64,000 bases of DNA from Candidatus Aminicenantes bacterium (GCA_963783665.1 CAWANZ010000004.1:15866-79865), one strand, 5' to 3'; shown: positions 44,966 through 64,000, numbered from the stretch's first letter. Program-made: numbers and translations. The notes: generated by a model not told the origin, from the letters alone.

Positions 44966-45064
44966 CGTTCCTCCTCCCAACGGGCGAAGTCCAGGCCGTC
45001 CGAGCGGACGGCGAAAATCACTATAATCCATTTGGAGATAAAGAAAAAGCGAGGAAACCGCGCC

Positions 45065-45382
45065 TTACGAAGCCATGCCCTCCCGCTTCAGCGCTTCGAC
45101 GGCGATCCGGCTGGAAGGGCCGTCGCCCCGGGCCGGGCAAACGGCGACTTTTCCTTCGGTGAGGGCGATGATCTCGGCGACATCCTTGTGGGTGAAGCCG
45201 GGACAGACGATGATCGAATCGAGCTTTTTCAACTTGTGCAGGTTGCCGATGACGGCCAGGGCTTCGGCCTGGTTTTTCACCATCACCGTGTCCAGGTGGT
45301 ATTTCCCCGTGTCGATAAAAGACTGGTGCTTGTTCAGGTCCGCATCGGGGGCTTTAGCCAGAAAGAGGGCTTGGAAAGGCAT
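45065..45382 (-). CDS. DUF6506 family protein
   Basis: ALFLAKAPDAD..KH...IDT, IIVCPGFTHKDVAEI, V..ARGDGP pattern. Confidence 0.65.
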   Translation of the reverse strand: MPFQALFLAKAPDADLNKHQSFIDTGKYHLDTVMVKNQAEALAVIGNLHKLKKLDSIIVCPGFTHKDVAEIIALTEGKVAVCPARGDGPSSRIAVEALKREGMAS

Positions 45383-45389
45383 GGTCGGG

Positions 45390-45875
<486 letters not shown>

Positions 45876-45951
45876 GGGAGCTCCTTTAATCAGGGATTCA
45901 GGCTCCCAAGATACCAGATTTTCCCGGCTTTTCCCAATTCATAAGCGGCGA

Positions 45952-46056
45952 AAATCGGTGCCAGGTATACCATTCCCCCATTTCGCCCGTTCTCAGGAGT
46001 CCTGCACGGATTTTCTTGTCTCGGAAATCGGGGAATAGATAACCTGGCACCGATTT
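45952..46056. repeat. Intergenic inverted-repeat element, copy 1 (GGTGCCAGGT type)
   Basis: AAATCGGTGCCAGGTATACCATTCCCC ... GGGGAATAGATAACCTGGCACCGATTT. Confidence 0.85.
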
Positions 46057-46069
46057 ATCAGCCCTCGGG

Positions 46070-47302
46070 TCATCGGACCGTCGCGCCCGGGACGACGCGG
46101 AAGAGGACGGGGAGCTGGTCGGCGTCGTCTTTCAGGACAGCCAATCCGATCAAGCCCGACTTGGCGAATCTCAGGAGGCGGAAACGGGAATCGATACTCA
46201 TCTCAAACGGGCCGGGGTCGAGGCGCGTTTCGGCGATGAATTGCCCCTGGGGTGAATAAACCGAAAAAGACAGGCTCGGTTCACCGGGATCGTCCGCCAA
46301 ATGGAAAAACAGGAAATTGCCGTCGGCATCCGTCATAATCTCGATAAAATGACGGAAGCTTCGCGTTGAAGAGCTGGGAGTAGTCGAGTCGTTCCAGCTC
46401 ATTGATACGCCGTTTTTGGCGGAGGGGCTCTTTTTCAGCCGGTCCAAGCATGGGCGCGAGCTTGACGCTTTTATAGCGGGCGAGGTATTCGGGCGTCACC
46501 GGCCGGGGCGGATTTTTCAATTCAAAAGAGCGCAGAAGCTTGCCGTCGTTGCCATAGATTTCGATTTGAGGAGAATTCGTGTCTCCCACGGCCAGGTTCC
46601 CGTCGGCGGTTCGGGCGAGATAAGACGTTTCCGACCATATTATCCCCGAACGACATGGCGCCTCCGGAAGAAAGCATGATCATCTTCTGCGTGACCGTTC
46701 GAGAGAAGACGACTTGTTCGATTCCGGTATCGATGTCCTTGAGGACAACCCGAATGGTCTTGGGCATCGATCGCACTCCGGGATTCCGGTCCTTGGCTCT
46801 CCTGTCTCGAACTGTTTGGCAAGATAAGCGATTTTCGTCCCGGTCAGGGCGACGACGTCATACACCGGGCGTTGGGCCTTGAGGAGCTTGAAAAACTTTC
46901 CGTTGAGGTCGAAAATGCTGATCCGGTGATTCAGGGCATATTCGCTCGACAACCAGATACTTTTCGTCGAGGATGCTCGGAGAGCTCGGGGTCTCGAGGT
47001 CTCCGGGCCCCTGGCCTTTCTGGCCGAACGTGAGGACCTTCTTCCCCGAAGGATCGAATTTATGGATCGTGTGTTCCCGGCCGTTGACCATGAAAATCGT
47101 CCCATCGGCGGCGACGGCGATGTCCTTGAAGCTTTCGAACAGGAAGCTCCCCCAATCCACGCCCTTCCCGAAAGTCGGGTCGGGGCTGAGCTTGAGGGGG
47201 CCGGCCTTGTAGACGTCGGCCCAGCGGACTTCAGCGGCGGCGAAAGAGCCGGGGCGAGAAGAGAAAGAAGAGAAAGAGACTGACGAGCGCGATTTTTTTC
47301 AT
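46070..47302 (-). CDS. Exported 6-bladed beta-propeller protein; multiple frameshifts
   Basis: ATG 47302; DIAVAADG, KFDPSGKKVLTFGQKGQGPGDL; EIYGNDGKLL and SVYSPQGQFIAE pieces in successive frames. Confidence 0.7.
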
Positions 47303-47418
47303 GCGATTGATCCTCTTTCGGTATATACGCCCAAGAGGTAAATTGTGTTTAGCATGAGGATCGGGAGCCGCATCCGGTCGGCCGGGGCTCCCGAAACAAC
47401 ACGAAGCCGTTTGCCGAC

Positions 47419-47698
47419 TTACTCATCCTTCCGGATCTTCCGGAGCTCGAAGATCACCGGCTTGGCCGCGTCCGGGCAGGCGTGAGTCTTGACGTCCTTG
47501 TCGGCTAGCCAGGGGAATTCCGCGTCGTAAAGCATGGCGAAAGCGCCCGGAAGCAGGCTGTAGAGAGCATGGATGCAGATGCGGCCTTCGACGCCATGCT
47601 GCGGTGATCATTGCCGAATCGCCGGACTTATATCCGAGCGAACACTCGTCCTTCACCTCGAGGACCGTGGCCTTGACGCCGACGACTTTTTTCTTCAT
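47419..47698 (-). CDS. TIGR04076 family protein; frameshift near 47600
   Basis: Reconstructed MKKKVVGVKATVLEVKDECSLGYKSGD...GRICIHALYSLLPGAFAMLYDAEFPWL...HACPDAAKPVIFELRKIRKDE*. Confidence 0.75.
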
Positions 47699-47762
47699 GG
47701 CAGCCCTCCGGTTCGCCTCGGATGGTATGCCCGGCCGAATGCGTCGTCAAGCGGTCTCTTTG

Positions 47763-47849
47763 AAATCGGTGCCAGGTTATCCATTCCCCAATTTGGGGGG
47801 GGCGATCAATTATGGAATTCGGGGAATGGATTTTACCTGGCACTAATTT
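47763..47849. repeat. Intergenic inverted-repeat element, copy 2
   Basis: AAATCGGTGCCAGGTTATCCATTCCCC ... GGGGAATGGATTTTACCTGGCACTAATTT. Confidence 0.85.
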
Positions 47850-47910
47850 CTTACTAATTTCTTGACGTCGTTGCATGACGCGGTTATCCTGGACGAAGGG
47901 GGCACCGAGT

Positions 47911-49026
47911 ATGCGACATCATTCCTTTATCTTGACGACCTATATTTTTATGGCGGCGGCCGTCCTTACGGCATTCCCGGCCCGTATTCAAAATCGAATC
48001 GACGAGAAGCCAATGAAAGCCGAGCTGATCTGGAGAATCGGCTCGGACGAGAAAAACGAAGATTTCTACAAGCCGAAATCATTCGCCGTCGACTCCCAAG
48101 GGAGATTTTTCATCCTCGACAGCGGAAACAGCCGGGTCCAATGCTTTTCGCCGGAAGGGAAGTTTCTCTTCTCTTTCGGCCGAGCCGGACAAGGCCCGGG
48201 AGAACTGTCCAAAGAGGCCGAAAAAATCAGGATCCTCGAGGACGGAAATATTTATATCATCGACAACCGCCAGCGTCGGATTAATATTTATAATATGAAC
48301 GGGAAATTCCTCTTTTCGAGAAAAACCGAGGGGGCGAATTTAATGATATTCTTTTAATCGACGGCTGGTACTATTTATCCAACCTGATCCTGAATAAAAA
48401 TCATCTCCCCATTCACGTCACGAAGACGCTAGAGAAAATCGACCATTCATTCGGGATTTTCATCGACCCCGATATTGATTTGGCCGAACGAGCTTCTTCA
48501 ACTGAATAAGCCCGGACTCTTCGAAGTCGTCCTTCAACAGCGCGGGAGGAACGCACCTGTTCGTTAACAAAAAAAAAGAGATCATCTACTCTCAAGTCTT
48601 CCCCTACCGCTTGATTAAATACAATACCGAAGGACGAATTCTTTGCGATATTGAAGCCTGACACCGGCTTCGGCACCGGTTCGCGGACGGTTGTCAGCAT
48701 CGACAAAGATAAAGATCAAGCATCCATTGGATTCAAGACGCCGCCTGCCCGACTTTTTCAGCCGTATCTCATGGACGACGATCATCTCGCCTATTTTTAC
48801 TTTAGTCCCGAAAAAGACACCGCTTTCCTTGACCTCTATGACCGCGACCTGAAGCTTATTTCCCGGCATAAAATGCCGAACCATATTCATGGATTTCCGG
48901 CTGGAGGATTATCGGCCGAAAGAATATTTGGGCGAGGTCTTTATCGATCGCAATAATAATCTTTATGCTTTATCTCATTCGCAAGAAGATCCGCCGCGGC
49001 TCGTCAAATATAAGCTGATTTATTAA
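47911..49026 (+). CDS. Exported 6-bladed beta-propeller protein; multiple frameshifts
   Basis: FYKPKSFAVDSQGRFFILDSGNSRVQCFS..GKFLFSFGRAGQGPGEL; later pieces in shifted frames, ending PRLVKYKLIY*. Confidence 0.72.
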
Positions 49027-49034
49027 AACCGGGC

Positions 49035-50599
49035 TCACTTGGCCCGGTATGCGAAATTCCGGAACTCCGCTTCGGCGCCGGGCGCCCCGCAAGCGAAGAG
49101 AGCAATCCGGAGACTTCGAAACCCGCGGAGCAGATTGGTCTGGAACGGCGAGACGTCGACCGCGTCCTCGATCCGTTTCCAGGTCGAGCCGTCCGGGCTG
49201 TAGTAAAGACCCACCGTCTGGTCGTCGTTAATGATTTTAAAGTGGACGGAAGCGCCGGCCGGAAGATCGGCGATTTTTTCCCGGCGGTTCGCACGAAAGT
49301 GATAAATCCCGTCCTGGCCGAGGCCGCAGCCGTAATAGTACCGAGCTCCGTAGTAAAGCATCAGTCCGGAAAAACCGGAGGCGCCGGATTTGATTTCGAC
49401 ACTCGCTTCATAGCGGTCATGATGAGCCTGGAAGAGAAGCGGATGCGATTCTTCGGGCTTCTCGCCAAACGATTTCATCTTGAGGACATTTCCGGAGAAA
49501 ACGTATCGGGCCGGGTCGAAGGAGCCGGCCGCCTGCCAACGGTGATTGCGAAACAGCGTTTCGAAGTCGCCCTGAAGGTCAATCGTCGAGCCGAGATTAT
49601 CCCCCTTCGGCATCGGAATCGGGCGAGCCGGGTCCACTCCATCCTTGAGCCGGGGCCAGCCGTCGGCCGTCCATTCGACCGGCTCGAGCAAGGTCATCCG
49701 GCCGCGGGTTCGTCGGTTGTTTTTGGCCGCATGATAGACGACGTACCAGTCTCCGGCCGGCGTATCGATGAAACTGGCGTGGCCTTTGGACCACCAGGCC
49801 TCGGACGAGGCGAACGTATGAAGGAGCGGATTATGCGGCGAATTCTCCCAGGGCCCGAGGACGGTTTTCGACCGGGCGACAACAGCCATATGGCCCGTCG
49901 CCGGGCCGGACGTGCCGCCCTGGGCGGAGACGAGATAGAAATATTCTCCCCGGCGGAAAAGCTTGGGCGATTCCAGGCAAAAGCATTCGACCAGCCAGTC
50001 CTCCGGATAAGCCCAGCCGTCATACACTTTGCGCGCTTCCCCGACGGTCGAAAGGCCGTCGGGAGCCAGGCGAATCATGTGCCCGTCGGAGAAATAGAGA
50101 TAGCGGTTTCCATCCTCGCCGACGATATGGCCGGGGTCGATGTTCCCGATTTTCAGGTCGACCGGGGCAGACCATGGGCCGGCCGGGGAATCGGCCGTCA
50201 CAACGCAGTTCGAATGGGTCGTCTGGTTGGGATAGTAGATGTAGATATTTTCCGTCGTGCTTGACCAGCTCGGGCGCCCAGATTTCGCCCGCACCTTCGG
50301 TCAAAGCCGCACCGATCGCCTTCCAGTTCACCAGGTCCCGGGAGTGCCAGACAATAAGCCCCGGCTTGTTGTCGTGGGGCGTATGGGTCATGTAATAGTC
50401 CCGGCCCGTCGCGGAGGATGGTTGGGTCTGGATAGTCGCCGGGAAAAATCGGGTTAAGGTAGAAACCGTTGCCGAGGTCGCCGAACGCCCCAGGAGGAAT
50501 GGTCGCGGAAGCGGAGGCCGGAGGGGTCGGCGCTTCCGGCCGGCAGGACATCGCCGCGAAAAGAGCCAGGCAAAGGAAAGCGGGAGGAATTCTCTTCAT
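49035..50599 (-). CDS. GH43 glycoside hydrolase with C-terminal beta-sandwich, probable lipoprotein; frameshifts
   Basis: Lipobox-like AMSC; NPIFPGDYPDPTILR, IWAPEL, IDPGH, LESPKL, GHASF, GRMTLLEPVEW. Confidence 0.88.
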
Positions 50600-50602
50600 A
50601 AT

Positions 50603-51763
50603 TCACTTCCAGACTTGGCCGAAGATCCGGAGGAAATTCCCCCCCAGGATTTTCCGGATGTCGGCGTCGCCATAGCCGCGCTTTCCCAAGCGGTCAACGA
50701 AATTGACGACTTCAGCATATTGACTGAATCCCTCGGCCATCCGAAGCGGCGAGCGGAAATTGGCGGTGATATGCTTGTCGTAAGCCCCGGCCACGTCCTT
50801 GAGGGTTGGAGCGCCCCAGGGATCGGCGACATGCTCCGGATATGTCCCCAGGCTCATGTCCGTCCCGATGCCGATGTGGTCGACGTTTCCAATCAGCTGG
50901 GCGGTGTGGTCGATGTGATCGATGAAATCATCGACGGTCGGACGCGTCGTCCGGCCTTTCTTCAGGATCATCGGCCCCCAAGGGCACAATCCGACGACCC
51001 CGCCCTTGGCCGCGCAGGCCTTGATCCGGGCATCATCCACGTTGCGCGGATTGGGCGCAACGGCGTCCGCACCAGAGTGGCTGAAAACGACCGGTTGGCG
51101 GCTGCGCTCGATGATCTCCATCCCCGAGCGGGCCCCGACATGGGAGCAGTCCAGGAGCAGGCCGAGGCGGTTGCATTCGTCCACGGCCAGCTCGCCCAGC
51201 GAGGTCAATCCTCCATCGGCTTTGTCGAGGCAGCCGCCGCAGAGCTGGTTGGTCTGGCTGTAGGCGAAAATCAACATCCTCAAACCCAGGCGGTAGAAGG
51301 CCTCGAGCCGGTGGAGCTTGTCGCCGATGAAGTCCCCGCACTGAGAGGCCAGGAGCAGTCCGGTCCGGCCGGATTTTTTTAGCTCGGGGATTTCCGCAGC
51401 CCTGGTGACGATGACAAGGTTCGGATGTTTCCTGACCACGGCAGGCCAAAACATCAAGCCTTCCAAGGCCCGGTCGATGTCCAGGTGCGGATCCCAAGCC
51501 GTGACGCCGTAAACCGTAGCTCCGTAGCGGTGGGCGTCGGCAAACGGCGCATCGGGCCACATCTGCATGCAGGAGTCGATAAAAATATAGGAATGGTCTT
51601 TTTCCAAGATCGGATGGATGCCCCGTTCTGCAGGGCTCAATCCCCCGGAGGCCGCCTTTTGTCCCGGTTTGCCCGTCCCGGCCGATGCCGGCGCGATCCC
51701 CGCGGCCGCCGCCGTCGCCCCGATTCCCGCCCAGCGAACGAAATCCCTTCGGGTTATGCTCAT
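50603..51763 (-). CDS. M19 dipeptidase-like protein with Tat signal
   Basis: MSITRRDFVRW; LGLRML, LDCSHVG, FSHSG, NPRNVDD..IKA.A..GGVVG, IGIGTD, ILGGNF. Confidence 0.85.
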   Translation of the reverse strand: MSITRRDFVRWAGIGATAAAAGIAPASAGTGKPGQKAASGGLSPAERGIHPILEKDHSYIFIDSCMQMWPDAPFADAHRYGATVYGVTAWDPHLDIDRALEGLMFWPAVVRKHPNLVIVTRAAEIPELKKSGRTGLLLASQCGDFIGDKLHRLEAFYRLGLRMLIFAYSQTNQLCGGCLDKADGGLTSLGELAVDECNRLGLLLDCSHVGARSGMEIIERSRQPVVFSHSGADAVAPNPRNVDDARIKACAAKGGVVGLCPWGPMILKKGRTTRPTVDDFIDHIDHTAQLIGNVDHIGIGTDMSLGTYPEHVADPWGAPTLKDVAGAYDKHITANFRSPLRMAEGFSQYAEVVNFVDRLGKRGYGDADIRKILGGNFLRIFGQVWK

Positions 51764-51803
51764 GCGCCGTGATCCTTTCATCGGGAATTGAGCCGTAGGA
51801 AAA

Positions 51804-51832
51804 GTTATATGCGACGCCGGCAGGGTTGTCAA
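51804..51832 (-). promoter_or_regulatory. sigma70-like promoter of the Tat dipeptidase
   Basis: Minus strand TTGACA (51832-51827), 17 bp, TATAAC (51809-51804). Confidence 0.7.
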
Positions 51833-51848
51833 AATCCGGAGTCGAGTG

Positions 51849-51934
51849 AGTTCGGGGCCAGGTTACTCAACCCCCGAACTCAGTAAAATCCCCGGCGCGA
51901 ATAATTCGGGGGTTGAGTAACCTGGCCCCGAACT
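51849..51934. repeat. Intergenic inverted-repeat element, copy 3 (GGGGCCAGGT type), perfect 30-bp arms
   Basis: AGTTCGGGGCCAGGTTACTCAACCCCCGAA (51849-51878) and its exact reverse complement (51905-51934). Confidence 0.92.
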
Positions 51935-51976
51935 ATGATATAAAGAGTTCGATTTGAGACCATCGGAGTGAGCGCC

Positions 51977-52570
51977 ATGTCCGACATCCGAATCATTAAA
52001 ACAACGCCGAGAATCTTATGCGGGGTGTTCCTCGTCACCCTCGCCCTCGCCCAGGCGGCCACGGCTCAACAGCAAGACACCCAGCTGGCCCGCATCCGGG
52101 CGCTCTGGGCCGAGGTTCAGGAGAGGATCGCCCTGGCCCTCAAGGAAGCCGAAAGCGGCAGTCCGCCGGGATTTTACGCCTCGGAAATCGTCGTTAACCG
52201 GCACAACGGCTCCTGGCGGGCGTCCGGGACCTATTTTAAAAAGACCGTCTTCTGGTACACGGACCATCCGGAATTCGCCGGCGAAGAGCCGGGCGGGCCC
52301 GCCTCCGTCCTGGTGAAGATCGAAATCCAGGAAATCGTCGCCGCCCGGACGCTCTACCGGGAATTCCTCTTCGACAAGGGCCAGCTCGTCTTTGCTTTCG
52401 TCCAAAGCCCCGGAGATACCGGGGCGGCCGAGGAGCTCCGGTATTATTTCGAAAACGGCAATCTGTTCCGCTATATGGAAGGCCAGAAGGTCGTCGCGAC
52501 CAAGCCCGACATCAAGGCCATCCTGGCCGAAGTGAAAGAGCTTCAAGAGCTCTTCCTCGCGACTTTTTAA
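51977..52570 (+). CDS. Exported hypothetical protein
   Basis: Signal peptide ending AQAATA; open frame with host-like codon usage; no family recognised. Confidence 0.6.
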   Translation: MSDIRIIKTTPRILCGVFLVTLALAQAATAQQQDTQLARIRALWAEVQERIALALKEAESGSPPGFYASEIVVNRHNGSWRASGTYFKKTVFWYTDHPEFAGEEPGGPASVLVKIEIQEIVAARTLYREFLFDKGQLVFAFVQSPGDTGAAEELRYYFENGNLFRYMEGQKVVATKPDIKAILAEVKELQELFLATF

Positions 52571-52593
52571 CATCCTTCGTCCTGGAGGACATC

Positions 52594-55500
52594 ATGAAAA
52601 AGACCGCCGTACTCATCCTCTCCCTCTGCTCCTCTCCCCGCTTGTCTCCTTCGGCCAAAAAGCTAAGGCCGGGGACCAGCCGGCCGCGCCCGAAAAGCCC
52701 GGCCTTCTCACGTCCGGGCTTCTCTCCGGCCTGGCCTTCCGCAACATCGGGCCGGCAATCATGTCCGGCCGGATCAGCGACATCGTCATCCACCCCAAAC
52801 GAAAATCGACCTGGTATGTGGCCGTCGGTTCGGGCGGCGTCTGGAAAACGGAAAACGCCGGGACGACCTGGACGCCGATCTTCGACGGCCAGCCGTCGTA
52901 TTCCATCGGCTGCCTGGCGCTGGACCCCATCAATCCCGAGATCGTCTGGGTCGGGACGGGCGAAAACGTCAGCGGCCGTCACGTCGGATACGGCGACGGC
53001 GTCTATAAAAGCCTCAACGGCGGAAAGACCTGGACGAATATGGGTTTGAAAAAGTCCGAGCATATCGCCCGGATCCTCATCGATCCCCGCAATCCGGCGG
53101 TCGTCTACGCCGCGGCCGAAGGGCCGCTCTGGTCGGCCGGCGGCGAGCGAGGACTTTATAAATCCTCCGACGGCGGAAAGACCTGGGCCCTCTCCCTCGA
53201 AATTTCCAAGGACACCGGGGTCACCTCGGCCGAATTCGATCCCGTCCGATCCCGACGTTCTCTACGCCGCGGCCTATCAGCGGCGGCGTTCGGTCGCCGC
53301 GTTCATCGGCGGCGGACCGGAGTCGGGCATTTACAAAAGCGAGGACGCCGGGAAGACCTGGCGCAAGCTGACCGTCGGTCTGCCGAAGGGCGACGTGGGG
53401 AAAATCGGGCTGGCCGTATCGCCCCTCGACCCGCGCGTCGTTTATGCCACGGTCGAGGCCTCCCCCGAAGAGCGCGGCTTCTTCCGCTCGGCCGACCGGG
53501 GCGAAAGCTTCGAAAAGCGCAATCCCTACATCAGCGGCGGCACCGGCCCGCATTATTACCAGGAGATCTTCGCCGACCCGACCGTCTTCGACCGCGTCTA
53601 TCAGATGGACCCCGGCCTGACCGTCACCAACGACGGCGGCAAGACCTTCGCCCGCGTCCCGGAGAACAACAAGCACGGCGACAACCACGCCATGGCCTTC
53701 CTCCCCGGCGACCCGGACTACATCCTCAACGGCAGCGACGGCGGGCTGTACGAGACCTATGACGGCGGGAAGACCTGGCGGTTCTTCGAGAACCTGCCCG
53801 TGACCCAGTTCTACAAGATCGCCCTGGACAACGCCCTGCCCTTCTACAACGTCCACGGCGGGACTCAGGACAACGGCAGCCAGCTCGGCCCCTCCCGGAC
53901 GCTCAACGGCAACGGAATCACGAACGCCGACTGGACGATCACCTACGGAGCCGACGGCTACGCCAGCGCCGTCGATCCGGCCGATCCGAACACGATTTAC
54001 CTCGAATGGCAGGAAGGCAATCTCCTCCGCTACGACCGCAAGAGCCATGAGACCATCTATGTCAGCCCGAGGCCGGAGCCCGGAGAGCCGCCGCTTCGGT
54101 TCAACTGGGACTCGCCGGTCCTGGTCAGCCCCCACGCCCACACCCGGATCTATTACGCCTCCCAATATGTCTGGAAGAGCGAGGACCGGGGCGATTCCTG
54201 GACCCGGATAAGCCCCGATCTGACCCGGAACATCTTCCGCCTGGCCCAGCCGATCATGGGCCGGACCTGGAGCGTGGACGCCCTCTGGGACCACGGGGCG
54301 ATGTCCCAGTTCTCGACGATCTCGACGATCAGCGAATCGCCGCTCGTCGAGGGATTGATTTACGCCGGGACGGATGACGGCTTGATCCAGGCGACCGAGG
54401 ACGGCGGGAAATCCTGGCGGAAGATCGACCGCCTGCCCGGCGTCCCCGAAAATTTCTTCGTCAACGAGATCAAAGCTTCGCCGGCCGAGCCGGACGTCGT
54501 TTTCGCCGCCGTCGATGCCCATAAAACCGGCGATTACAAGCCGTATTTGCTCCGGAGCGGCGACCGCGGCAAAACCTGGTCGTCAATTTCCGGAGACCTC
54601 CCCGACCGGACGATCGTCTGGGCCGTCGCCCAGGATGCGGTCGCGAAAAACCTCATCTTCGCCGGAACCGAATTCGGCATCTACGCGACCATCGACGGAG
54701 GGAAGCGCTGGCTGAAGATGTCCGGCGGCCTGCCGACGATCTCCTTCCGCGACCTCGAAATCCATGCGCGGGAAACCGACCTCGTCGGCGCTTCGTTCGG
54801 TCGCGGCGTCTACATCCTGGACGATTTTTCTCCCCTGCGGAAAATCGACGAAGCGGCCATGGCCCGCCCGGCCGTCCTTTTCCCGGTTAAAAAAGCGTTG
54901 TCATACATTCCGATGAGGCCGATCGATTCTTCGAGCAAAGGCTGTCTCGGGGACACATTCTTCCTCGCCCCCAATCCTCCCTTCGGCGCCGTCTTCACCT
55001 ACTATCTCAAAGAAGGCTTGCAGCCGGCGGCCAAGGCCCGACAAGAGGCGGAAGCCAAGCTTCTCAAAGAAGGGAAAGCCGTGGCGTTCCCCGGCTGGGA
55101 CGCCCTTCGGAAGGAAGACCTGGAGGAAAAACCGGAGATCGTCCTGACCGTCGCGGCCGAGGACGGCTCGGTCGTTCGGCGAATGACCGTCCCGAGCGGA
55201 TCCGGTCTGCATCGCGTCGCCTGGGACCTGCGTTATCCGGCGGTTAATCCAACCCGGTTGGACGATCCGTTCCGCGAATCCTGGCAATGGGCGCCGCAAG
55301 GACCGCTCGTCGTCCCGGGAAGCTTCACCGTTTCCCTGGCCAAAAAGGTCGACGGAGAGCTGATTTCCCTGGACGGTCCCGTTCCGTTTACGGTCGAATC
55401 GATCGGCCTGGCCTCGCTTCCTGAAAAGGACAAAGCGGCGCTCCTGGCCTTCCAGAAGAAATCCGGCGAGCTCCAGCGGGCGATGCTCGGAGCCTCGGCC

Positions 55501-55893
55501 GCGGCCCAGGAAGCCCTGCGGTCGCTGGCCTTCGTCCGGAAAGCCCTTCTCGACACGCCCAAGGCCGACCCGAAGCTTGGAGAACAGGCCCGGGCGATCG
55601 AACGCGGGATCAAGGACGCGCTCCTGATTCTGACCGGGGACGAGACGAAGTACCGCCTTTATGAAGTCCAGCCGCCGTCGTTGATGGACCGGGTCACCCT
55701 TCAGACGGACGCGACCGGGCCGATCACAGCAAGCGCGAAGCGGGAATACGAGATTGCGGCCGCCGGTTTCGGCGACATCCTGGAGAAGCTCCGCGGCTTG
55801 ATCGAGGGCGACCTGCGCAAGCTCGGCGCGGCCTTGGAAGCGGCCGGGGCCCCGTGGACTCCCGGCCGCGGCCTTCCGGTCTGGAAGAAGTAG
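52594..55893 (+). CDS. BNR/Asp-box (sortilin/VPS10-like) glycosyl hydrolase-like protein; frameshifts near 52620 and 53250
   Basis: FRNIGPAIMSGRISDI, repeated S.DGG.TW / SEDRGDSW, GGTQDNGS, GTEFG.Y, SFGRGVYILDD. Confidence 0.88.
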
Positions 55894-55903
55894 GGCTTTT
55901 TTT

Positions 55904-57503
55904 ATGCGTTGGATTACGGGATTCCTGATCCTGGCGGCGGGCTTGGCCTTGTTGCCCGGTCTCTCGTCGGGTCCGACGCTCCCTCTGGATCGATACTACG
56001 GGGCGGCGGATAACGGCCTGCTTCTGCGGGTCGAGGATGATGAGGGCCGGGCTCTTTATCTCCAGGTGAGTGTCGTGGATGATCGAGGACGCTCCCGGCA
56101 ATTGCTCCGGCCTCTGCGCCTGGAGCCTGCCGTCGGGGACGGCCGGGTTTATGAGGAAGCCGGCCCGGCCGGCGGGACTTCGGTGAAGGTGCGCGTTCTT
56201 TTCGATAAAGATGGAACGGCCCTCCGGTGGCTGCAGCCGGCGCAATTGAAGCTTGCCGACGGAGTCCCCATCCAAATCGCCGGCCGCCACCTGCTCCTTT
56301 CCGAAGCGAATCGAAAAGCGGCGACGGAACGCCATTTCGCCCTGGCGGACAAGGGCCTCAACGATGCATACAACCGGCTCCGACGGGAAATGACGCCCAG
56401 GGATTTCGCCGAGCTTCGCACCAACCAGCTGCAATGGCTGAAATACCGTGATCGCTTCATCGCCGACGGCGACGATAGCGAGATCAACGGGCCCGGGTCC
56501 ATCCCCTTCCGGCAAGCACAGACGACGCGCACCCTCGAGCGGACGGCCTTTCTGCAATCTTTCGGGCGGCCTTCAACCGCCGCCGAAGGTCTCGGCGGCC
56601 GCTATAGCGACGGGATCGATTGGGAGATTCGCCTGGGTGAAGATCCGCGAGATCGAGGAACACCTGTTTTATGCGCTTCAGTACAGTCTCTCGCAGCGAC
56701 GAGGCCCGGAATGGCCGTTGCCCGTCCTGGTTTCCGGATGCGGATCAAGGAAGTCGGACGGACATTCCTGGACGCTGACCGGAAAAGCAGTGGCGGAGGG
56801 CTCGGCAAACGCCGAGAAAGAGCTCCTGCTCACGCCGGCCGCCGATCGCCGAAGCCTGGAAATTTCCGGCTCGACTCCCAAATCCTTCAGCGTCCGGCTG
56901 TACCGGGTGGCTGATGTCGGCCCGGCCGATGAACCCATGCGGGCCGTTCTGGCGCGGCTGCCGGCCGCGATTTTTGATGATACCACCGAGGGCCTGAGCG
57001 AGCCCGACAAGAGAACGCTGCTTCTGACCGGGGCCTCGGATTTCTTTCAACTTGAGGAGCCGGCCACAGACTTTGTACGCGTCCGATATCGCGACGGCCA
57101 GGTTGACCTGCGCCGATTTTCGCGGGCCGACGGCGGCGCCGTAATCGCCGTGGCCACCGCCAACCTGCGGGCCCGCAGCTTCGGGCTCTGGCGGATATCG
57201 GCCGCGGATAAGACGCCGCAATCCTGGCCGCTTGAACAGGCGCTGCCGCCGCTTGGGGCGTCCGATTTCTATCAAGATCCCGATGACGCGGCGGCCGCAT
57301 CCCGGGGCTTGCTGGAATTCAGCCTGCGCCCCAACCTGGCGGAGATTCACGCAGACTGGACGAGGTTGAAAGACGGGCCGGAACCCGATATCGACATCGA
57401 CCTGGTCTGGAACGGCGTCGGATTCGACGTGATCCGGAGCGGGCGATTCACTTCTTCGCCGGGGGCGGCTCGGGCTTGTTCCAGTCCGGCGGCTCGACCT
57501 TGA
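55904..57503 (+). CDS. Exported multidomain protein containing an LprI/DUF1311-like helical domain; frameshift near 56640
   Basis: [12 protein letters not shown]...[13 protein letters not shown]; C-terminal part in ORF 56448-57503. Confidence 0.6.
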
Positions 57504-59741
57504 GGAGATGGCGAACAAAGAAGTCGTTCCGCTTGCGCTCACCGAACGCCCCGCCGCTCGTATGATCGGCGTTGGGGACGACGGCCAGCTCGAAATCCTT
57601 GTTGGCTTTGATCAAGGCGTTGACGACCTGCATCGTGCTGGCCGGATCGACGTTCGTGTCCATTTCGCCCACCAGGAGAAGGAGCTTCCCCTCGAGGCGA
57701 TAGGCGTTGTCGACGTTGGAGGAGGCGGCATATTCGGGACCGAGCGGCCAGCCCATCCAGGCCTCGTTCCACCAGATCTTGTCCATCCGGTTATCGTGGC
57801 AGCCGCAGGCGGAGAAGGCGACTTTGTAGAATTCGGGATGGAAGAGGAGGGCGCCAAGGGAGTTCTGCCCGCCGGCCGACGTGCCGTAAATGCCGACGCG
57901 GGTGATGTCATAATAAGGATACTTGGCCGCGATCGCCTTGTGCCAAAGGATCCGGTCGGGGAAACCGGCGTCGCCGATGTTCTTCCAGCTGTAGTCGTGA
58001 AACTCTTTGGACCGGTTGGAGGTTCCCATCCCGTCGACCTGGACGACGATGAAACCCAGCTCGGCCAGGGCCTGCATCCCGCTGAAACCGCTGAAGGCCT
58101 TGGGGACGAAGGAGTCGTGCGGCCCGGCGTAGATGTTTTCAACGACCGGGTATTTTTTATTCGGGTTGAAGGTCGAGGGGCCGGAAAATCACACCCCAGA
58201 TGTCCGTTTTGCCATCGCGGGCCTTGGCCGTGAACACTTCGGGCGATTTCCACCCGGCTTTGACGAGAGCGGAGATGTCGGTTTGTTCGGCCCGGAGAAC
58301 GAGTGACCGGTCGGCGGATTTGCGGACATCGAGGACGGGAGGCAGGTCGACCCGCGAGTACAGGTCGGTGTAATACATCCGATCCGAGGATAAAGCGGCG
58401 GAATGGGTCGCGTTTTCCTCGGTGAGTGCGGTCAAGCCGGTGCCGTCGAAGTTGATCGTATAACAGTGAATGAAGTAGGGGTCCTGGCCGGAATTCATGC
58501 CGCTGGCCCGGAACCAGATCTTGCGGGCCTCCTCATCGACTTTGTCCACGCCCCGGACGACCCAGGCGCCCTTGGTAATTTGGTTTTTCACCCGCCCGGT
58601 CGCGCCATCGTAAAGGTAGAGGTGGTTCCAGCCGTCGCGCTCGGACATCCAGACGATTTCCTTGCCGTCGGCGAGATCAGAGCGATACATCTTCCCGGAA
58701 TACGTGAAAAAGGTTTTCGGTTCTTCGCTGATGACGGCCCGGGGCTTGCCGGTCGCGGCCTCCACCTCGATGATCCGATAGACCTGGTGGCCCCGCTGGT
58801 TGTACTCGAAGGTGAAGGCCCGGCTGTCTTTCCGCCACTCGGGATCGGAGAGCTCGAATTGGCTCGCAAACAGAGCGTTGTTGATTTCGATTGATTTGCG
58901 GTCGTCGAGAAGCAAGAGGACCGGCTGGTTGAAGTCGATGACATCGCCCGGCTTAGTGTAGCCGATCGAGGAATATTCCGGCTGGAGTTGGCCGGCCGGA
59001 GAGGAGCGGACGTATTGGATGCGGCGATGGAGGCCCCGACGGACCCGATAGGCGACCAGCTTTTTCGAGTCGGGAGACCAGGCGATCGAACGGAAGCTGT
59101 AATAATTTCCCTCCGCCCCGTCATAGGTCAGGGCGAATTCCTCTTTCTTCTGGTCGTCCTTGGACCGGACATAGACGTTGAAGTTGCGAACGAAGGCTTC
59201 CCATTTGGCGTCGGGCGAGGCTTTCGCTCCGACGGAGGCGGCCGGTTCGGCCGGGCCGCCGAAGTCCTGCCAGTTGCCCTGGCCCTCGCGCCGTTCGACC
59301 GGGCCGGTTTTCTCGAGCGCGCCCGTAGCCAGAATGAACTTCCATTTGAAGTCCCTCATCTCGAAGGTGATCGCCTTCGTCTCGTCGACGAATTCGAGGC
59401 GCTGGAGGAGGATGCGTTTCGGGTCGATTTTATCTTTAAGGGCTTCGGCGAGCGCGGCGGCAAGCTTGTCATGATCGAAAGCGGGGGCCTTGGAAGCCGC
59501 GTCGGCATCGATCAGGACGTATTCGCCGCCTTCACCGACGGCTTTGCGGTACCAGAATTTATGCGTTTTCTCGATCCAGGTCGGCCGCTCGGGCTGATTG
59601 ACAATCAGCGGCCGCCACTGGTCCCTGAGCTTGGTTGAACGGTCATAGTCGGCCCGGGTGCCTTGGGCGGAGAGGAAAACCGGGAGGATGAAGAGTCGCA
59701 ACGAGAAGAAGGTTAAAAGTGGTTTTCAGCGTGTTTTTCAT
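57448..59741 (-). CDS. S9 family peptidase (DPP IV N-terminal propeller + alpha/beta hydrolase); frameshifts near 59700 and 58170
   Basis: [29 protein letters not shown] (Ser), DTNVD (Asp), ADH (His). Confidence 0.9.
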
Positions 59742-59786
59742 ATTCCCTCCATAGAAGCGAGCCGCCGTAATATACTACATATCATA

Positions 59787-59873
59787 AATTGGTGCCAGGT
59801 TAACTCATTCCCATATTTCGGCGATTATTTTCGTTGGAAAGAAATCGGGGAATGAGTAACCTGGCACCCAATT
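59787..59873. repeat. Intergenic inverted-repeat element, copy 4
   Basis: AATTGGTGCCAGGTTAACTCATTCCC ... GGGGAATGAGTAACCTGGCACCCAATT. Confidence 0.85.
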
Positions 59874-62392
59874 ACTTAATCGAGCCGATGGGGCGCCGGG
59901 CGGCAGGGCCGAAACCGCCGGGCGCTTGAACGCCTCGGGATTCTTCTCGAACTGCTCGATCTGAAAGATTCCGAATTTCAAGTGGGCCTTTCTCGTCCAT
60001 GCCGGCCGGCCTTCCCCATTCTCGTCGGCCAGGGCTGTTTTTCAAATCATCGACCTTCAGCAGGGCGATCGCCCGGGCTTGAGCCGATGCTTCGTCGCTT
60101 GCGGCCAAGGCCAGAATCTGGGCCAGGGCGGCTTTATCGGCCACGCGTTTGACTTCGGCCCGGTAAGGACGAAAGCGGAGATTTCGTCGCGGCTTCCCAG
60201 GTCGACGGCCAGGAGCTTATCGATGACTTCATCCAGCCCCGGATTATCGGCGTTTCGGGAATGATACTCGACAAGCCGGGAAGCCCGGGCCGGATTCAAA
60301 ATCAATCCCGGCCGTCATCCCCGCGGCCTCTTCCACCGGGATGAACGGATCGAACGGTCCCCGGTCCGCCCGCCGAACAGTTCCACCGTTTCGCCGTAAT
60401 CGGAGGCCCGCGGCGGGATCATCGCTACGATCCGTTCGTCAAGGGCCAGGAACTCCGGAGTGAGAGTTTTCAGAACGACATCCAGCGCCCGGCGTTGCTC
60501 GGCCGGCGAGACGATTTCGGACGGCTTCTGGGCATCGCCCCGAAGCCGGTGGAAATACATCATCCCGCCGATCGAAGCGGCCGCGGCCTCGGTCTGGTAC
60601 CGATGGAAAAGATAGGCGGTGACCAGCGGCTCTTCGAGGGGGGCCATAGGAGCTGCCCGGACGAATCCGCTTTTCCGAGAACGTTTTCAGGGCGATGTCC
60701 CGGACCCGGATAACCCGCTCGAGCTCGTCGACCAGGTTGCGGCCGTTGTCCCAGGCGGCGGTCAAAGGATGGGCGCCGTGAGGGACCGGAATCCGAATCG
60801 GCCAGAAAAACCAAGTCCGGAGGCGAACGCTTTTTCGAGCACGGCCCGGGAAGCCGCGTCGGCATCGACGCCGGCGGGATAATCCCGGTAGGCATAATCG
60901 ACGGCGGCTTTGTCGAACGCTCCGATACCGACGGCATAAGCCTCAGACAAATCGAGCGTGCCGTCGGCTTTAATATCGACAAACGGGTGGGGATAATCCA
61001 TGACCGAGGCCCGATCGTTTGTGCTGGCCGCGAAATTGTGCCCCATCCCCAGGGTGTGGCCGACTTCGTGGGCGGAAAGCTGGCGGATTCGAGCCAGGGC
61101 CATCTCCCGGATCTCTTCGGAGTTGTCGCCGCCCTCCTCATACGCTCCCAGCAGCGATTCGGCGATGAGATAATCCTGGCGGATGCGGAGCGAGCCCAGC
61201 GAGACATGGCCCTTGATGATCTCGCCCGTCCGCGGATCGGACAGGCCGCCGCCGTAGGACCAGCCCCGGGTCGAGCGGTTGATCCAGTTGATCATGTTGT
61301 ACCGGGCGTCCATCGGGTCGGCGCCCTTCGGGCAGGAGCTTGACTTGGAACGCGTTGATATAGCCCGCGGCCTCGAAGGCCTGGTTCCACCACGAGGCCC
61401 CTTCGAGGACGGCCGTCCGGATCGGTTCGGGAATCCCCCGGTCGACATAATAGACGATAGGCTTGACCGCTTCCGACCGGGCCGCGGCCGGGTCCTTTTT
61501 TTCCAGCCGGAACCGGCTGACGAATCTCTTTTCCATCGGCTCGCCGACCGGCAGTGGCGAAATCCATGTAGGAATGGGCGAAGAAATTCGACCGGGGGTC
61601 GAAGACCCGGAGCTTGTATCCGGGGTCGGGAAGCTTGACGAAGGAATGATGCACCCGGAAGGTCAAGGCCCCGGCGTCGGGGGCGACCATGCGGAGGAAC
61701 ATCCCGGGATTCGAGCCGGTCAGGGTGAGGAGGACGTCGATTTCGGTGTTATGCGGGAAGTTGCGGGCCGCGGGCAAGTCGATCGCCGACCGGGTTTCAT
61801 CCACCCGGAATTGGCCCTGGTTCGCGACGGCCGATCGATCCGGCGAGATTCATGGCGTCGCGGAGGAGAAAAGCCGTCGCATCGACCAGAAGACGGCCGT
61901 CTTCCTCGGCCGGCGATGTCGAATCCCCAGATGACGGATTGGACAAAGGAGTCTTCGACGTTGCGGCGGACATCGGCGTCGTCCGTCTCCGCCCGGAAGC
62001 CATTGGTTAGGCTCGATCAGAAGGACGCGCGGGCCGGCTTTCCGGAAACGGACGACCTTCTCCCGGCCGAGCGAGGCCCGGTCGAGGCCGACGTCGTTGC
62101 TGCCGAGCCCATCCGGAAGCGAGGGATAATAGAGGAATTCGGTCGTCGAGCTTGTCGATTTCCAGCCAGAGTTTCCCGGCCTTTTCGTCTTTATAAATCG
62201 GGAACCATCCCGGGATCTTTTCGAAACCGTGGCCCGGTCGGTGATCGAAAGGAGTGACGGTTGCGGGATAAACACCCGGCTGGAGCTCCGACCCGCGACC
62301 GACTGGGGCGAATCAGGCCGAAAAGCCCAGCGGAAGAAGAGCGGCAAGCGACCAGGGAAGAAGACAAGAATTTTTTGAAGGATTTTTTTCAT
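59872..62392 (-). CDS. EcxA-like zinc metalloprotease (DUF5117/DUF4953 type); many frameshifts
   Basis: [15 protein letters not shown] (HExxHxxGxxH) and ASVMDY Met-turn; PIVYYVD...[13 protein letters not shown]. Confidence 0.88.
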
Positions 62393-62435
62393 GAAATCCT
62401 CCGCGACGGATCATGGCGATGAACCATCATACCAA

Positions 62436-62500
62436 AATCGGGGCCAGGTTACTCAATCCCGAATTCGAATTCGGGAGTTGAGTAACGCTGGCCCCGAATT
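62436..62500. repeat. Intergenic inverted-repeat element, copy 5 (short spacer)
   Basis: AATCGGGGCCAGGTTACTCAATCCCGAA-TTCGAA-TTCGGGAGTTGAGTAACGCTGGCCCCGAATT. Confidence 0.85.
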
Positions 62501-62540
62501 ATTATAATGGCGACGGCATCCCGCGGGAAAGGAGACGCCC

Positions 62541-62960
62541 ATGGCCGAAGAGCTGAGCGCCGTCGTCGTGTGGAAGGGAAAGCTGGAATTCGAGGGCCGG
62601 GCGGTTTTCGATCAGGCCATTCACATCGACGTCTCGCCTCCCCTGGGCGAGGATCACGGCGCCAAGCCCATGGAGCTCCTGTTGATCAGCCTGGCTTCCT
62701 GCGCCGGGCAGATCGTCGTCTCCCTCCTCCAGAAAATGCGCCAGGACGTCCGGGCGTTCACCGTCAAGGCGAGCGGCCCCAAGCAGCCGGATCATCCGCG
62801 GGTGTTCACCTCCATCCGCTTGGACATGGAGATTTCCGGACAGGGGATCGATCCGGCCGCCGCGGAAAAGGCCCTTCAAATGGCTGAAGAAAAATATTGC
62901 CCCGTCTTCGCCATGCTGAAAAACAGCGTCCCCATCCAAACGTCCATTACGATCAAATAA
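62541..62960 (+). CDS. OsmC family protein
   Basis: PMELLL.SLASC and AEEKYCPV with both conserved Cys. Confidence 0.88.
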   Translation: MAEELSAVVVWKGKLEFEGRAVFDQAIHIDVSPPLGEDHGAKPMELLLISLASCAGQIVVSLLQKMRQDVRAFTVKASGPKQPDHPRVFTSIRLDMEISGQGIDPAAAEKALQMAEEKYCPVFAMLKNSVPIQTSITIK

Positions 62961-62975
62961 GCGACGAGGTCTCTC

Positions 62976-63863
62976 GTGAAAAAATCCGCTCCCGTCCTCC
63001 TTTGGGCCGCCTTCGTTCTCGCCGCCCTTCCCCTTGCCGCCGCTCAACCTTCCCGCCATCCGGCCGGCTCGCTCCTGATCATCGGCGGCGGGGATCGGCC
63101 CGACGGCCTGACGTCGAAATTCGTCGAGCTCGCCCGGGGATTCAGCTCGGGAAAAATCATCATCTTCACAACGGCCAGCGGCGTCCCGGAAGAGGTCGGG
63201 CCGGAGATGATCGCCGAGGTGAAAGCGGCCGGGGCAACCGAGGCCGCCGTATACCATCTCACCCGGGAGGAGGCCCTCAAGCCGGACAGCGCGAAAATCC
63301 TGGACGGGGCCGGGGGCATTTATTTCTGCGGGGGCGTTCAATCACGGCTCACCGATGTCCTCCTCGACACGCCGATTCATCGACGGCTTCTCGAGCTCTA
63401 CGCCGAAGGGCTGGTGCTGGCCGGGACAAGCGCCGGGGCCGCGGTCATGAGTGAAGTCATGATCACCGGAGACGAAAAACGGACAACCGACGAGAACGCC
63501 AATTGGCAGACCATCGAGGCCGAAAACGTCATCACCACCCGCGGATTCGGCTTCCTGACCACGGCCATCGTCGACCAGCATTTCGTCCGGCGCCGCCGCC
63601 ACAACCGGCTGATCAGCCTGGTCCTGGAACGCCCCGCCCTCGTCGGCCTCGGCATCGACGAGTCGACGGCCGTCTGGGTCCGGCCCGACGGCCGGTACGA
63701 AATCGTCGGGATCGGCCAAGTCATTGTCTACGACGCCCGGGCCGCGGCCGTGTCCCACACGCCCGACAGTCTCCTTGGCGCCGCCGGAATGACCGTCCAC
63801 GTTCTCCTTCCCGGCGATGTCTACGATCCGGCGACCGGCAAGGTCGAGGGAGCCCGCCGGTGA
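62976..63863 (+). CDS. Cyanophycinase (S51) with signal peptide
   Basis: LLIIGGG, IYFCGGVQSRL, AGTSAGAA (Ser), VDQHF.RR.R.NRL, GLGIDESTA. Confidence 0.88.
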   Translation: MKKSAPVLLWAAFVLAALPLAAAQPSRHPAGSLLIIGGGDRPDGLTSKFVELARGFSSGKIIIFTTASGVPEEVGPEMIAEVKAAGATEAAVYHLTREEALKPDSAKILDGAGGIYFCGGVQSRLTDVLLDTPIHRRLLELYAEGLVLAGTSAGAAVMSEVMITGDEKRTTDENANWQTIEAENVITTRGFGFLTTAIVDQHFVRRRRHNRLISLVLERPALVGLGIDESTAVWVRPDGRYEIVGIGQVIVYDARAAAVSHTPDSLLGAAGMTVHVLLPGDVYDPATGKVEGARR

Positions 63864-64000
63864 AAAAGCTCCGTCTCCCCCACACCCTCATCCTGATTTA
63901 CGCCATGGTCGTCCTGACCGTGATCCTGACCTGGATCATCCCCGGCGGCGAATACCAACGGGTGGAGAAGGACGGCCGAGAGGTTCCGGTAGCCGGATCC
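63860..64000 (+). CDS. YfcC-family (DcuC/TIGR00366-like) transporter, partial at window edge
   Basis: GTGA overlap with the cyanophycinase; MKKLRLPHTLILIYAMVVLTVILTWIIPGGEYQR. Confidence 0.75.
   Translation, partial: MKKLRLPHTLILIYAMVVLTVILTWIIPGGEYQRVEKDGREVPVAGS

Follow-up and report, generated by a model that had tools for sequence, protein, structure and literature searches.

REPIN-like inverted-repeat doublets in a Candidatus Aminicenantes genome and their probable link to a TIRYT-type transposase

The window analysed here, i.e. the whole stretch of 64,000 nucleotides C4:15866-79865 of a Candidatus Aminicenantes genome (G000; an assembly of 4.12 Mb in ten contigs), contains five inverted-repeat elements. 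We consider it very likely that these are REPIN-like doublets of a genus-specific repeat family, tied to a single-copy transposase gene of the TIRYT type, RAYT-1, which most probably mobilises them in trans. The same repeats flank RAYT-1, which lies outside the window, and this supports the suggestion of a preliminary description of the elements that a Y1 (RAYT-type) transposase spreads them in trans. That description had also called the element undescribed. This is true of the sequence family, which is uncatalogued (no Rfam, plasmid or phage match), but not of its kind, because terminal inverted repeats (TIRs) associated with TIRYTs were described in 2013: sequence family and lineage are new, and the kind of system is already known (PMC3733652; REPIN-RAYT literature). 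The five palindromes thus become ordinary selfish or domesticated DNA, and a false lead, that of a promoter-specific element or a cruciform operator, is removed.

The five elements and their repeat family

An inverted-repeat scan of window positions 45000-64000, together with direct reading of all five elements, found them at the places reported before. They are listed here with the predicted DNA fold of the whole element; no strand is assigned to any of them.

e1, 45952-46056, 105 bp: type-A doublet, two inverted units of ~33 nt, 39-nt spacer; fold -26.3 kcal/mol, z -6.6
e2, 47763-47850, 88 bp: type-A doublet, 20-nt spacer; fold -20.4 kcal/mol, z -4.6
e3, 51849-51934, 86 bp: type-B doublet, 26-nt spacer; fold -38.3 kcal/mol, z -12.2
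e4, 59786-59874, 89 bp: doublet of intermediate subtype (GGTGCC...CTCATTCCC), 21-nt spacer; fold -27.9 kcal/mol, z -7.8
e5, 62435-62502, 68 bp: type-B doublet, almost no spacer; fold -29.7 kcal/mol, z -10.5

Alignment of the ten arms reveals that every arm is itself a small palindrome (e.g. AATTCGGGG, CCAGGTTACTCAA and CCCCGAATT), so that an element consists of two hairpin units in inverted orientation with a spacer between them. The 30-nt arms of e3 are 100% complementary, the right arm of e5 carries a 1-nt insertion, and the right end of e2 is lengthened by an 11-nt tandem duplication (ACTAATTTCTT twice, 47842-47863). The core GCCAGGT-N4-5-CA-NN-CCC occurs seven times in the window versus 0 in 100 dinucleotide-preserving shuffles. 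As DNA, single units are predicted to fold with -9.0 kcal/mol (z -4.3) in subtype B and -5.1 kcal/mol (z -2.5) in subtype A, and whole elements with -20 to -38 kcal/mol, a stability that no shuffle attained. The two subtypes recognised previously, A (GGTGCC...TTATCCATTCCCC) and B (GGGGCC...TTACTCAACCCCC), are real, but they do not accommodate all five copies, as e4 (GGTGCC...TTACTCATTCCCC) is intermediate.

A half-site search with an arm profile over the whole genome (E<0.1) yielded 85 half-sites, which correspond to 34 doublets and about 12 solo units at 46 loci, with doublet spacers of 0-73 bp. No match on C4 precedes window position 45952, in agreement with the earlier statement that the first 45 kb of the window hold no copy. 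All units can be anchored on GCCAGG and share the self-complementary consensus A(T)AAWTCGGKGCCAGGTTAYYCAWYCCCCGAWTT(C) of ~33-35 nt, with conservation spanning positions -10 to +24 around GCCAGG and dropping sharply beyond both ends. Genome-wide, the main subtypes are A (GGTGCC...TTATCCATT) and B (GGGGCC...TTACTCAAC), connected by intermediates that include e4. Most doublets are homotypic (29/33), and within a subtype the likeness of partner arms is barely above that of random pairs (B p~0.02, A p~0.25). A search of the elements against Rfam returned nothing at the gathering score, the only hits being eukaryotic miRNA-hairpin models far below threshold, and neither plasmid nor phage collections contained a match.

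The repeats are unevenly distributed: all 46 loci fall into 12 of 87 bins of 50 kb, the median nearest-neighbour distance is 1.8 kb versus 33.5 kb under random placement, and nine loci are found within about 13 kb of RAYT-1. Crowded stretches are, e.g., C7:803040-868454, C3:15156-30732 and C2:1003806-1047397, and clusters are also located on C4 and at the C7 end. A tie between these clusters and replication landmarks was considered and rejected, the GC skew being weak and bearing no relation to them.

About 13 arms genome-wide, among them one of e2, are accompanied just outside by partial direct copies of their outer 11-15 nt. The idea that these partial terminal duplications share one precise junction had to be given up: truncation points vary between -1 and +15 (mode +2 to +4), so that the end points are scattered and are most frequent just after GCC, GCCA or GCCAG. 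The partial copies may be footprints of an enzyme, which is speculative, or products of slippage at hairpins. Apart from these, a truncated unit joined to an identical foreign sequence (AATTCGGGGCCAGGT followed by ACGGAATTCA) was observed both on C7 (minus strand, near 12.8 kb) and at C8:113195, a shared junction that may point to a repeat of composite nature or to duplication of a segment.

The Y1 transposase genes

A search of the genome with the Pfam family Y1_Tnp (PF01797) identified three Y1 genes:

RAYT-1, C3:27641-28309: HUH/Y1 tyrosine transposase of 222 aa, single-copy, outside the window
RAYT-2, C5:114978-115637: 45% identical to RAYT-1, with its own flanking repeat GGAGACACAATACCAATTAACCTA (~17 half-sites)
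RAYT-3, C2:499258-500043: 25% identical to RAYT-1, with its own flanking repeat GGGGTCGGACCTCAGGA (~38 half-sites)

RAYT-1 is embedded in copies of the family described above: a type-A doublet (C3:27456-27561) is located 79 bp upstream, and an inverted solo type-A unit (C3:28307-28338) overlaps the stop codon at the 3' end. Its product possesses an HUH motif (NHIHLVV) and the class-2 tyrosine motif Y---NP (YVENNP), and residues H59, H61, Y118, N122 and P123 are invariant in 21 homologues; in TnpA-Y1 class 2 the two motifs are about 58-67 residues apart (Quentin et al. 2018, PMC6006769). When a profile of the 21 homologues was compared with PDB, the best match was 4ER8, the E. coli TnpA-REP (E 3e-7), and IS200-family transposases ranked lower. 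BLASTP comparison with the TIRYT reference sequences (supplement 5 of PMC3733652) gave 32% identity to sml4509 (E 6e-39, residues 1-216 of 222) and 36% identity to dau2153 (E 2e-38, full length), the C-terminal extension being included in both alignments; the similarity to the E. coli b228 RAYT is restricted to 95 residues with about 25% identity (E 3e-7). Within the C-terminal extension Pfam detects no helix-turn-helix (HTH) domain at E<=1; members of subclass 2.1 have an HTH-like extension at this end.

From this similarity to TIRYTs we infer that RAYT-1 is of the TIRYT type and resembles RAYT group 1 or TnpA-Y1 subclass 2.1. The latter corresponds to Bertels' group 1, holds most TIRYTs (20/26) and is reported to have no REP-like (repetitive extragenic palindromic) partners (PMC6006769), and the 16-mers that flank group 1 genes have merely about 12 occurrences (Bertels et al. 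2017, PMC5581495).

The presence of several near-identical transposase copies, by which autonomous IS200/IS605 elements are recognised, does not apply to this genome, in which the three Y1 genes are 25-45% identical to each other and have differing repeats. The repeat families of RAYT-2 and RAYT-3 likewise form close inverted pairs in small clusters, and that of RAYT-2 is conserved beside orthologous genes in other genera of the family.

Occurrence in related species and strains

Repeat and transposase vary together among the six other species of the genus that were compared (G001-G006). The repeat pattern is present in four of the six (10-25 matches per strand) and in essentially none of the 34 further genomes compared from the family or order. 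Orthologues of RAYT-1, with 62-71% identity, occur in G002, G003, G004 and G006, and G005 has neither orthologue nor repeats. An Aminicenantes origin is confirmed by the names of the homologues. The gene keeps its site (lpxD-RAYT-trxB) in at least G000 and G003, and each orthologue is flanked by the variant of its own species: type A in G000, type B in G003, GGGGACAG... in G004 and the strongly diverged TCGGTACCTGTTTATCCATTTCC in G002. The G002 variant GGTACCTGTTTAWCCATTTCC is represented by 74 copies in G002 and by 0 in G000, and many of the former lie less than 13 kb from the G002 transposase gene, as nine loci of G000 do from RAYT-1. In G006 the orthologue abuts trxB in the opposite orientation. 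The whole repeat-transposase-repeat cassette is reversed with respect to trxB between G006 (C76) and G000 (C3), which suggests that it was inverted between its flanking inverted units.

Individual copies turn over between species. At the site orthologous to e1 G001 has a decayed, degenerate copy, e2 is absent from G003, e3 is present in G001 and absent from G002 and G003, and the e4 site of G001 is occupied by a type-B doublet with a 183-nt spacer. Exact-protein look-ups with the cyclophilin and OsmC for closer empty sites returned nothing, and 80 metagenome loci of dipeptidase relatives, at most 80% identical, contained no unit.

Turnover is also visible between strains. The contig L034 (ENA ERZ25039462 contig_3759) is 97-99% identical to C3:17634-38274, and the differences are found mainly at repeat loci: an 83-nt insertion or deletion comprises a whole doublet, of which G000 keeps the outer 10 nt alone; where L034 has a full solo unit, G000 retains no more than its outer 16 nt; a doublet of one strain is swapped for a different solo unit in the other; and one strain has a single 13-nt partial copy of an arm end, the other two. 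The junctions of these differences lie near the boundary between ACC and TGGCAC.

Several observations weigh against a transposase-driven family. Both the association with RAYT-1 and the turnover are correlative, and the ragged junctions between the strains would fit replication slippage or deletion as well as the action of an enzyme. In G001, 34 units were found and no RAYT-1 orthologue was detected, but the gene may be missing from this assembly, which is 89% complete and consists of 360 contigs. RAYT-1 scores 68.3 bits against NCBIfam NF047646 (REP_Tyr_transpos), under the cut-off of 80, and the unit consensus has neither a GTAG nor a CGTC tag on either strand; in canonical REPs, palindromes of 20-40 bp, one of these tags stands unpaired at one end. 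Strong regional clustering is no described property of REPINs. Furthermore, covariation in the unit stem is weak (50 of 83 units paired at the most variable pair vs 41 expected), and the small unit hairpin is therefore a property of the consensus, unproven by compensatory change; an impression of compensatory covariation gained from few copies failed over the 83 units.

Proposed mechanism

For the REPIN-like doublets we infer a mechanism from homology and analogy with the E. coli TnpA-REP and IS200/IS605 systems. In single-stranded DNA, e.g. at replication forks, the unit would fold into a hairpin, which RAYT-1 would recognise, cut and rejoin. Units or doublets would thereby reach new positions, often close by, as copies that produce no target duplication. 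The majority are probably neutral or mildly useful passengers, and a few appear to have been co-opted.

A more far-reaching version of this scheme is possible, and we hold it only tentatively, as something that would rather surprise us. In it, a transposase of the TIRYT type, a class reported to have no REP-like partners or only small repeat families, maintains a REPIN-style population that spreads mainly nearby and so gives rise to the clusters around the gene in two species. The type-B arms would act as portable half-promoters (TTGAGT with a 17-19-bp spacer), at least one arm would have been fixed as the promoter of osmC before the genus diversified, and the partial copies that end near the boundary between GCCA and GG would be cut-and-rejoin footprints in the hairpin loop.

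The present case provides a well-resolved TIRYT-type transposase with a sizeable population of hairpin repeats from an uncultured phylum; large surveys found little or no association between this class and such repeats. Co-variation among species, turnover between strains and a likely promoter exaptation make it useful for understanding REPIN-RAYT evolution, even though it is no new kind of system. On the practical side, short-read assemblies of these genomes break at such repeats, which also mislead the calling of gene starts.

Position relative to genes and alternative explanations

In the preliminary description all five elements lay upstream of minus-strand start codons, from which a bias towards promoter regions had been derived. 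The distances to the nearest minus-strand starts are 76 bp for e1, 64 for e2, about 42-44 for e4 and e5, and 16 or more for e3, beside which the start of the longest open reading frame (ORF) is probably too far upstream. Two of the elements are 3'-proximal as well: e1, 76 bp upstream of the cyclophilin start (45875), ends 13 bp past the stop of ORF 46070-46447(-), and e4, ~44 bp upstream of the start of the DPP-IV-like gene, overlaps the stop codon of ORF 59872-60144(-). For the whole genome, genes were called with an ORF picker based on dicodon scores, which is crude and misses some short genes. The repeat loci are distributed as follows, with the number of intergenic gaps of at least 90 bp in parentheses:

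Between tandem (same-direction) genes: 22 loci (1018 gaps)
Between convergent genes: 10 loci (234 gaps)
Between divergent genes: 10 loci (399 gaps)
Inside an ORF: 3 loci
At a contig edge: 1 locus

There is no 5' bias, and convergent sites are if anything over-represented. A stop codon is found within 35 bp of 27 of the 46 loci, versus 3.9 expected (maximum 12 in 1000 trials), and several loci overlap the TAA stop itself. The postulated promoter-region bias is thus not supported genome-wide, the lack of a 5' bias being the very outcome that the preliminary description had named as refuting it.

In a small part of the family, the promoter idea nevertheless survives as the exaptation of a few copies. 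Type-B arms contain TTGAGT about 17 bp from their outer end, and the right arm of e5 likely supplies the -35 box and the spacer of a promoter of osmC, whose ATG is at 62541:

Putative osmC promoter, 62478-62508, plus strand: -35 TTGAGT at 62478-62483, 19-nt spacer of arm sequence, -10 TATAAT at 62503-62508

A motif TTGAG(T/G/C)-18-TATAAT precedes osmC in G001, G002 and G004 as well, so that both hexamers and their spacing of 18-19 nt are conserved. In G001 and G002 the repeat-specific bases of the spacer have decayed, with a left arm that is degenerate or missing altogether; since the hexamers were kept while the spacer decayed, an old insertion appears to have been under selection at its two hexamers. 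Genome-wide, four of 83 arms, and e5 besides, have a perfect TATAAT at a distance of 18-19 nt from their hexamer, versus 0.1% under the null model. The four arms face gene starts according to the dicodon gene calls, and e5 faces the osmC start by direct reading.

Such observations could be taken further, to the view that the repeats are retained mainly for a benefit to the host, acting as portable promoters and, at 3' ends, as hairpins for the stabilisation or termination of transcripts, with the transposase domesticated as a maintenance enzyme in a REPIN-RAYT 'symbiosis'. Among the alternatives this one survives best, and we still regard it as unlikely. It would account for the excess of loci within 35 bp of a stop codon, for the -35 and -10 boxes of the e5 arm promoter conserved in four species, for the frequency of TATAAT at the proper distance from the arm hexamer, and for a RAYT gene that is single-copy, syntenic and housekeeping-like. 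On the other hand, orthologous copies have decayed (e1 and e5 in G001) or are absent (e2, e3) with no visible consequence, the hairpins are not followed by a T-run and are therefore not classical intrinsic terminators, and the placement next to stop codons may merely mark where insertions are tolerated.

Far less probable is a second reading, namely that the elements are regulatory sites of the host, operators or cruciforms bound by a transcription factor of a peptidase or stress regulon. The arrangement within the window invites it, with all five elements upstream of minus-strand starts, three of them in divergent regions and peptidases among the neighbouring genes. But ten loci are convergent, three are inside ORFs, most adjoin stop codons, and the neighbouring genes have no common function. 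Partial terminal duplications, differences between strains that are 97-99% identical and the presence of the repeats on both sides of a transposase gene are equally at odds with it. Element e3 is located where the M19 dipeptidase gene and ORF 51968-52570 diverge. The dipeptidase gene has a near-consensus sigma-70-type promoter of its own directly beside e3 (TTGACA-17-TATAAC, minus strand, 51804-51832), which implies that the true dipeptidase start is downstream of the longest-ORF TTG at 51832. This promoter is conserved in G001, G002 and G003, although G002 and G003 are without e3. The large cruciform regulatory site proposed earlier is not supported either, in view of copies in convergent gaps and ORFs, partial duplications and strain turnover.

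The chance that the elements are classical miniature inverted-repeat transposable elements (MITEs), deletion derivatives of a DDE-type insertion sequence (IS) with terminal inverted repeats and target-site duplications, is just as slight. Inverted arms of 26-33 bp, unrelated spacers, small size and intergenic location would be in keeping with a MITE. However, no direct repeat brackets e3, e5 or the other copies read, and where tandem repeats are present they duplicate the element's own outer 11-15 nt. Each arm is palindromic in itself, solo arms are common, the spacers of 0-73 bp have no internal sequence in common, and plasmid and phage collections yielded no match. Moreover, the sole gene flanked by the arms encodes a Y1/HUH transposase. 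A structured small RNA or cis-regulatory RNA is the least credible candidate, because, however stable the predicted hairpins are, the Rfam matches are spurious sub-threshold miRNA hairpins alone, the structure is symmetric on both strands, the would-be loops, made up of the spacers, share neither sequence nor length, the copies have no constant position with respect to genes and there is no significant covariation beyond the palindrome.

Two further candidates were rejected. The outward TGGCAC of type-A arms resembles part of a sigma-54 promoter, and no TTGC at the -12 spacing was found in any copy read. Integron attC sites or Xer/dif modules have other core sequences, the orientation of the genes is mixed, and the sole recombinase-like gene associated with the repeats is that of a Y1 transposase.

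Comparison with known systems

Di Nocera, De Gregorio & Rocco (2013, PMC3733652) set RAYTs, which are associated with GTAG REPs, apart from TIRYTs, which are associated with other inverted repeats. TIRYT-flanking repeats are sometimes self-complementary and occur in dimers and clusters, and examples of such TIRtrons are ORF1152 and ORF4509 of S. maltophilia K279a and ORF1552 of Koribacter versatilis (PMC3733652). RAYT-1 and its repeats agree with the TIRtrons in several respects: a Y1/HUH gene is flanked by inverted repeats, of which the one on the 3' side overlaps the end of the gene; alignments of the protein with sml4509 and dau2153 span its full length; and the repeats are self-complementary, moderately abundant and arranged mostly in close inverted dimers and clusters, singles occurring too. 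The motif GGGGWSAS, present in most but not all TIRs, is approached with one or two mismatches in G000 (GGGGCCAG or GGTGCCAG) and matched exactly in G004 (GGGGACAG). The differences are that both the sequence family and the lineage (Aminicenantes) are new, that two to three subtypes co-exist and share a single gene, and that the 85 units form strong clusters, one of them around the transposase gene itself; in addition, Pfam detects no HTH in the C-terminal extension at E<=1.

With REPINs and their RAYTs (Bertels & Rainey 2011, PMC3116915; PMC5581495) it shares the inverted doublet of palindromic units that forms a long hairpin, a transposase gene that is single-copy, vertically inherited, syntenic and repeat-flanked, a repeat 'quasispecies' of its own in each species, and several independent pairs of repeat and transposase per genome. 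What replicates in a REPIN is the doublet and not the single unit. The present system differs in several ways: RAYT-1 probably falls outside groups 2 and 3, in which the large REPIN populations are found; its repeats have no GTAG tag, number tens instead of hundreds and enclose highly variable spacers (0-73 bp); and the two arms of a doublet resemble each other barely more than arms drawn at random from one subtype do.

The E. coli REP/BIME sequences and TnpA-REP (Ton-Hoang 2012; Messing 2012) are likewise comparable: TnpA-REP provides the best PDB match (4ER8) and has the HUH and Y---NP motifs in common with RAYT-1, and its repeats are palindromic units in inverted pairs with variable linkers, mostly 3' of genes. 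Unlike TnpA-REP, to which it is about 25% identical over 95 residues, RAYT-1 has 222 aa instead of 165. The unit differs from the E. coli REP in its conserved loop of 13-14 nt and in its foot, which is A/T-rich and not GTAG.

The ends of IS1, IS2, IS10 and other insertion sequences carry outward-facing -35 boxes that create hybrid promoters. The pairing of the type-B TTGAGT with a flanking TATAAT at osmC is similar, with two differences: the carrier is a non-autonomous Y1-type repeat, and the putative osmC promoter seems to be an old one, conserved between species, and not the outcome of a recent activating insertion.

Other features of the window

Two peptidase genes between 57448 and 62392 seem to be in pieces. 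The N-terminal domain of the DPP-IV-like protein is encoded by ORF 58157-59701(-), with a 209-aa ORF apart from it at 57448-58077(-), and the gene for a Met-zincin (DUF4953) is split into the ORFs 59872-60144, 60315-60647, 60762-61448 and 61850-62392(-). Either frameshift errors in the assembly or pseudogenes can explain this condition; a CheckM-type completeness of just 77.5% for a genome in ten contigs suggests indel errors.

The TIGR04076 label given earlier to a gene near e2 could not be reproduced, as the 91-aa ORF 47423-47698 has no Pfam or NCBIfam match. In the surrounding interval 46000-49000 the coding scores are weak and the G+C content is 0.53-0.56, compared with about 0.60. The interval consists of short ORFs without family match, save an NHL/beta-propeller fragment at 47875-48357, and it may be degraded or foreign DNA.

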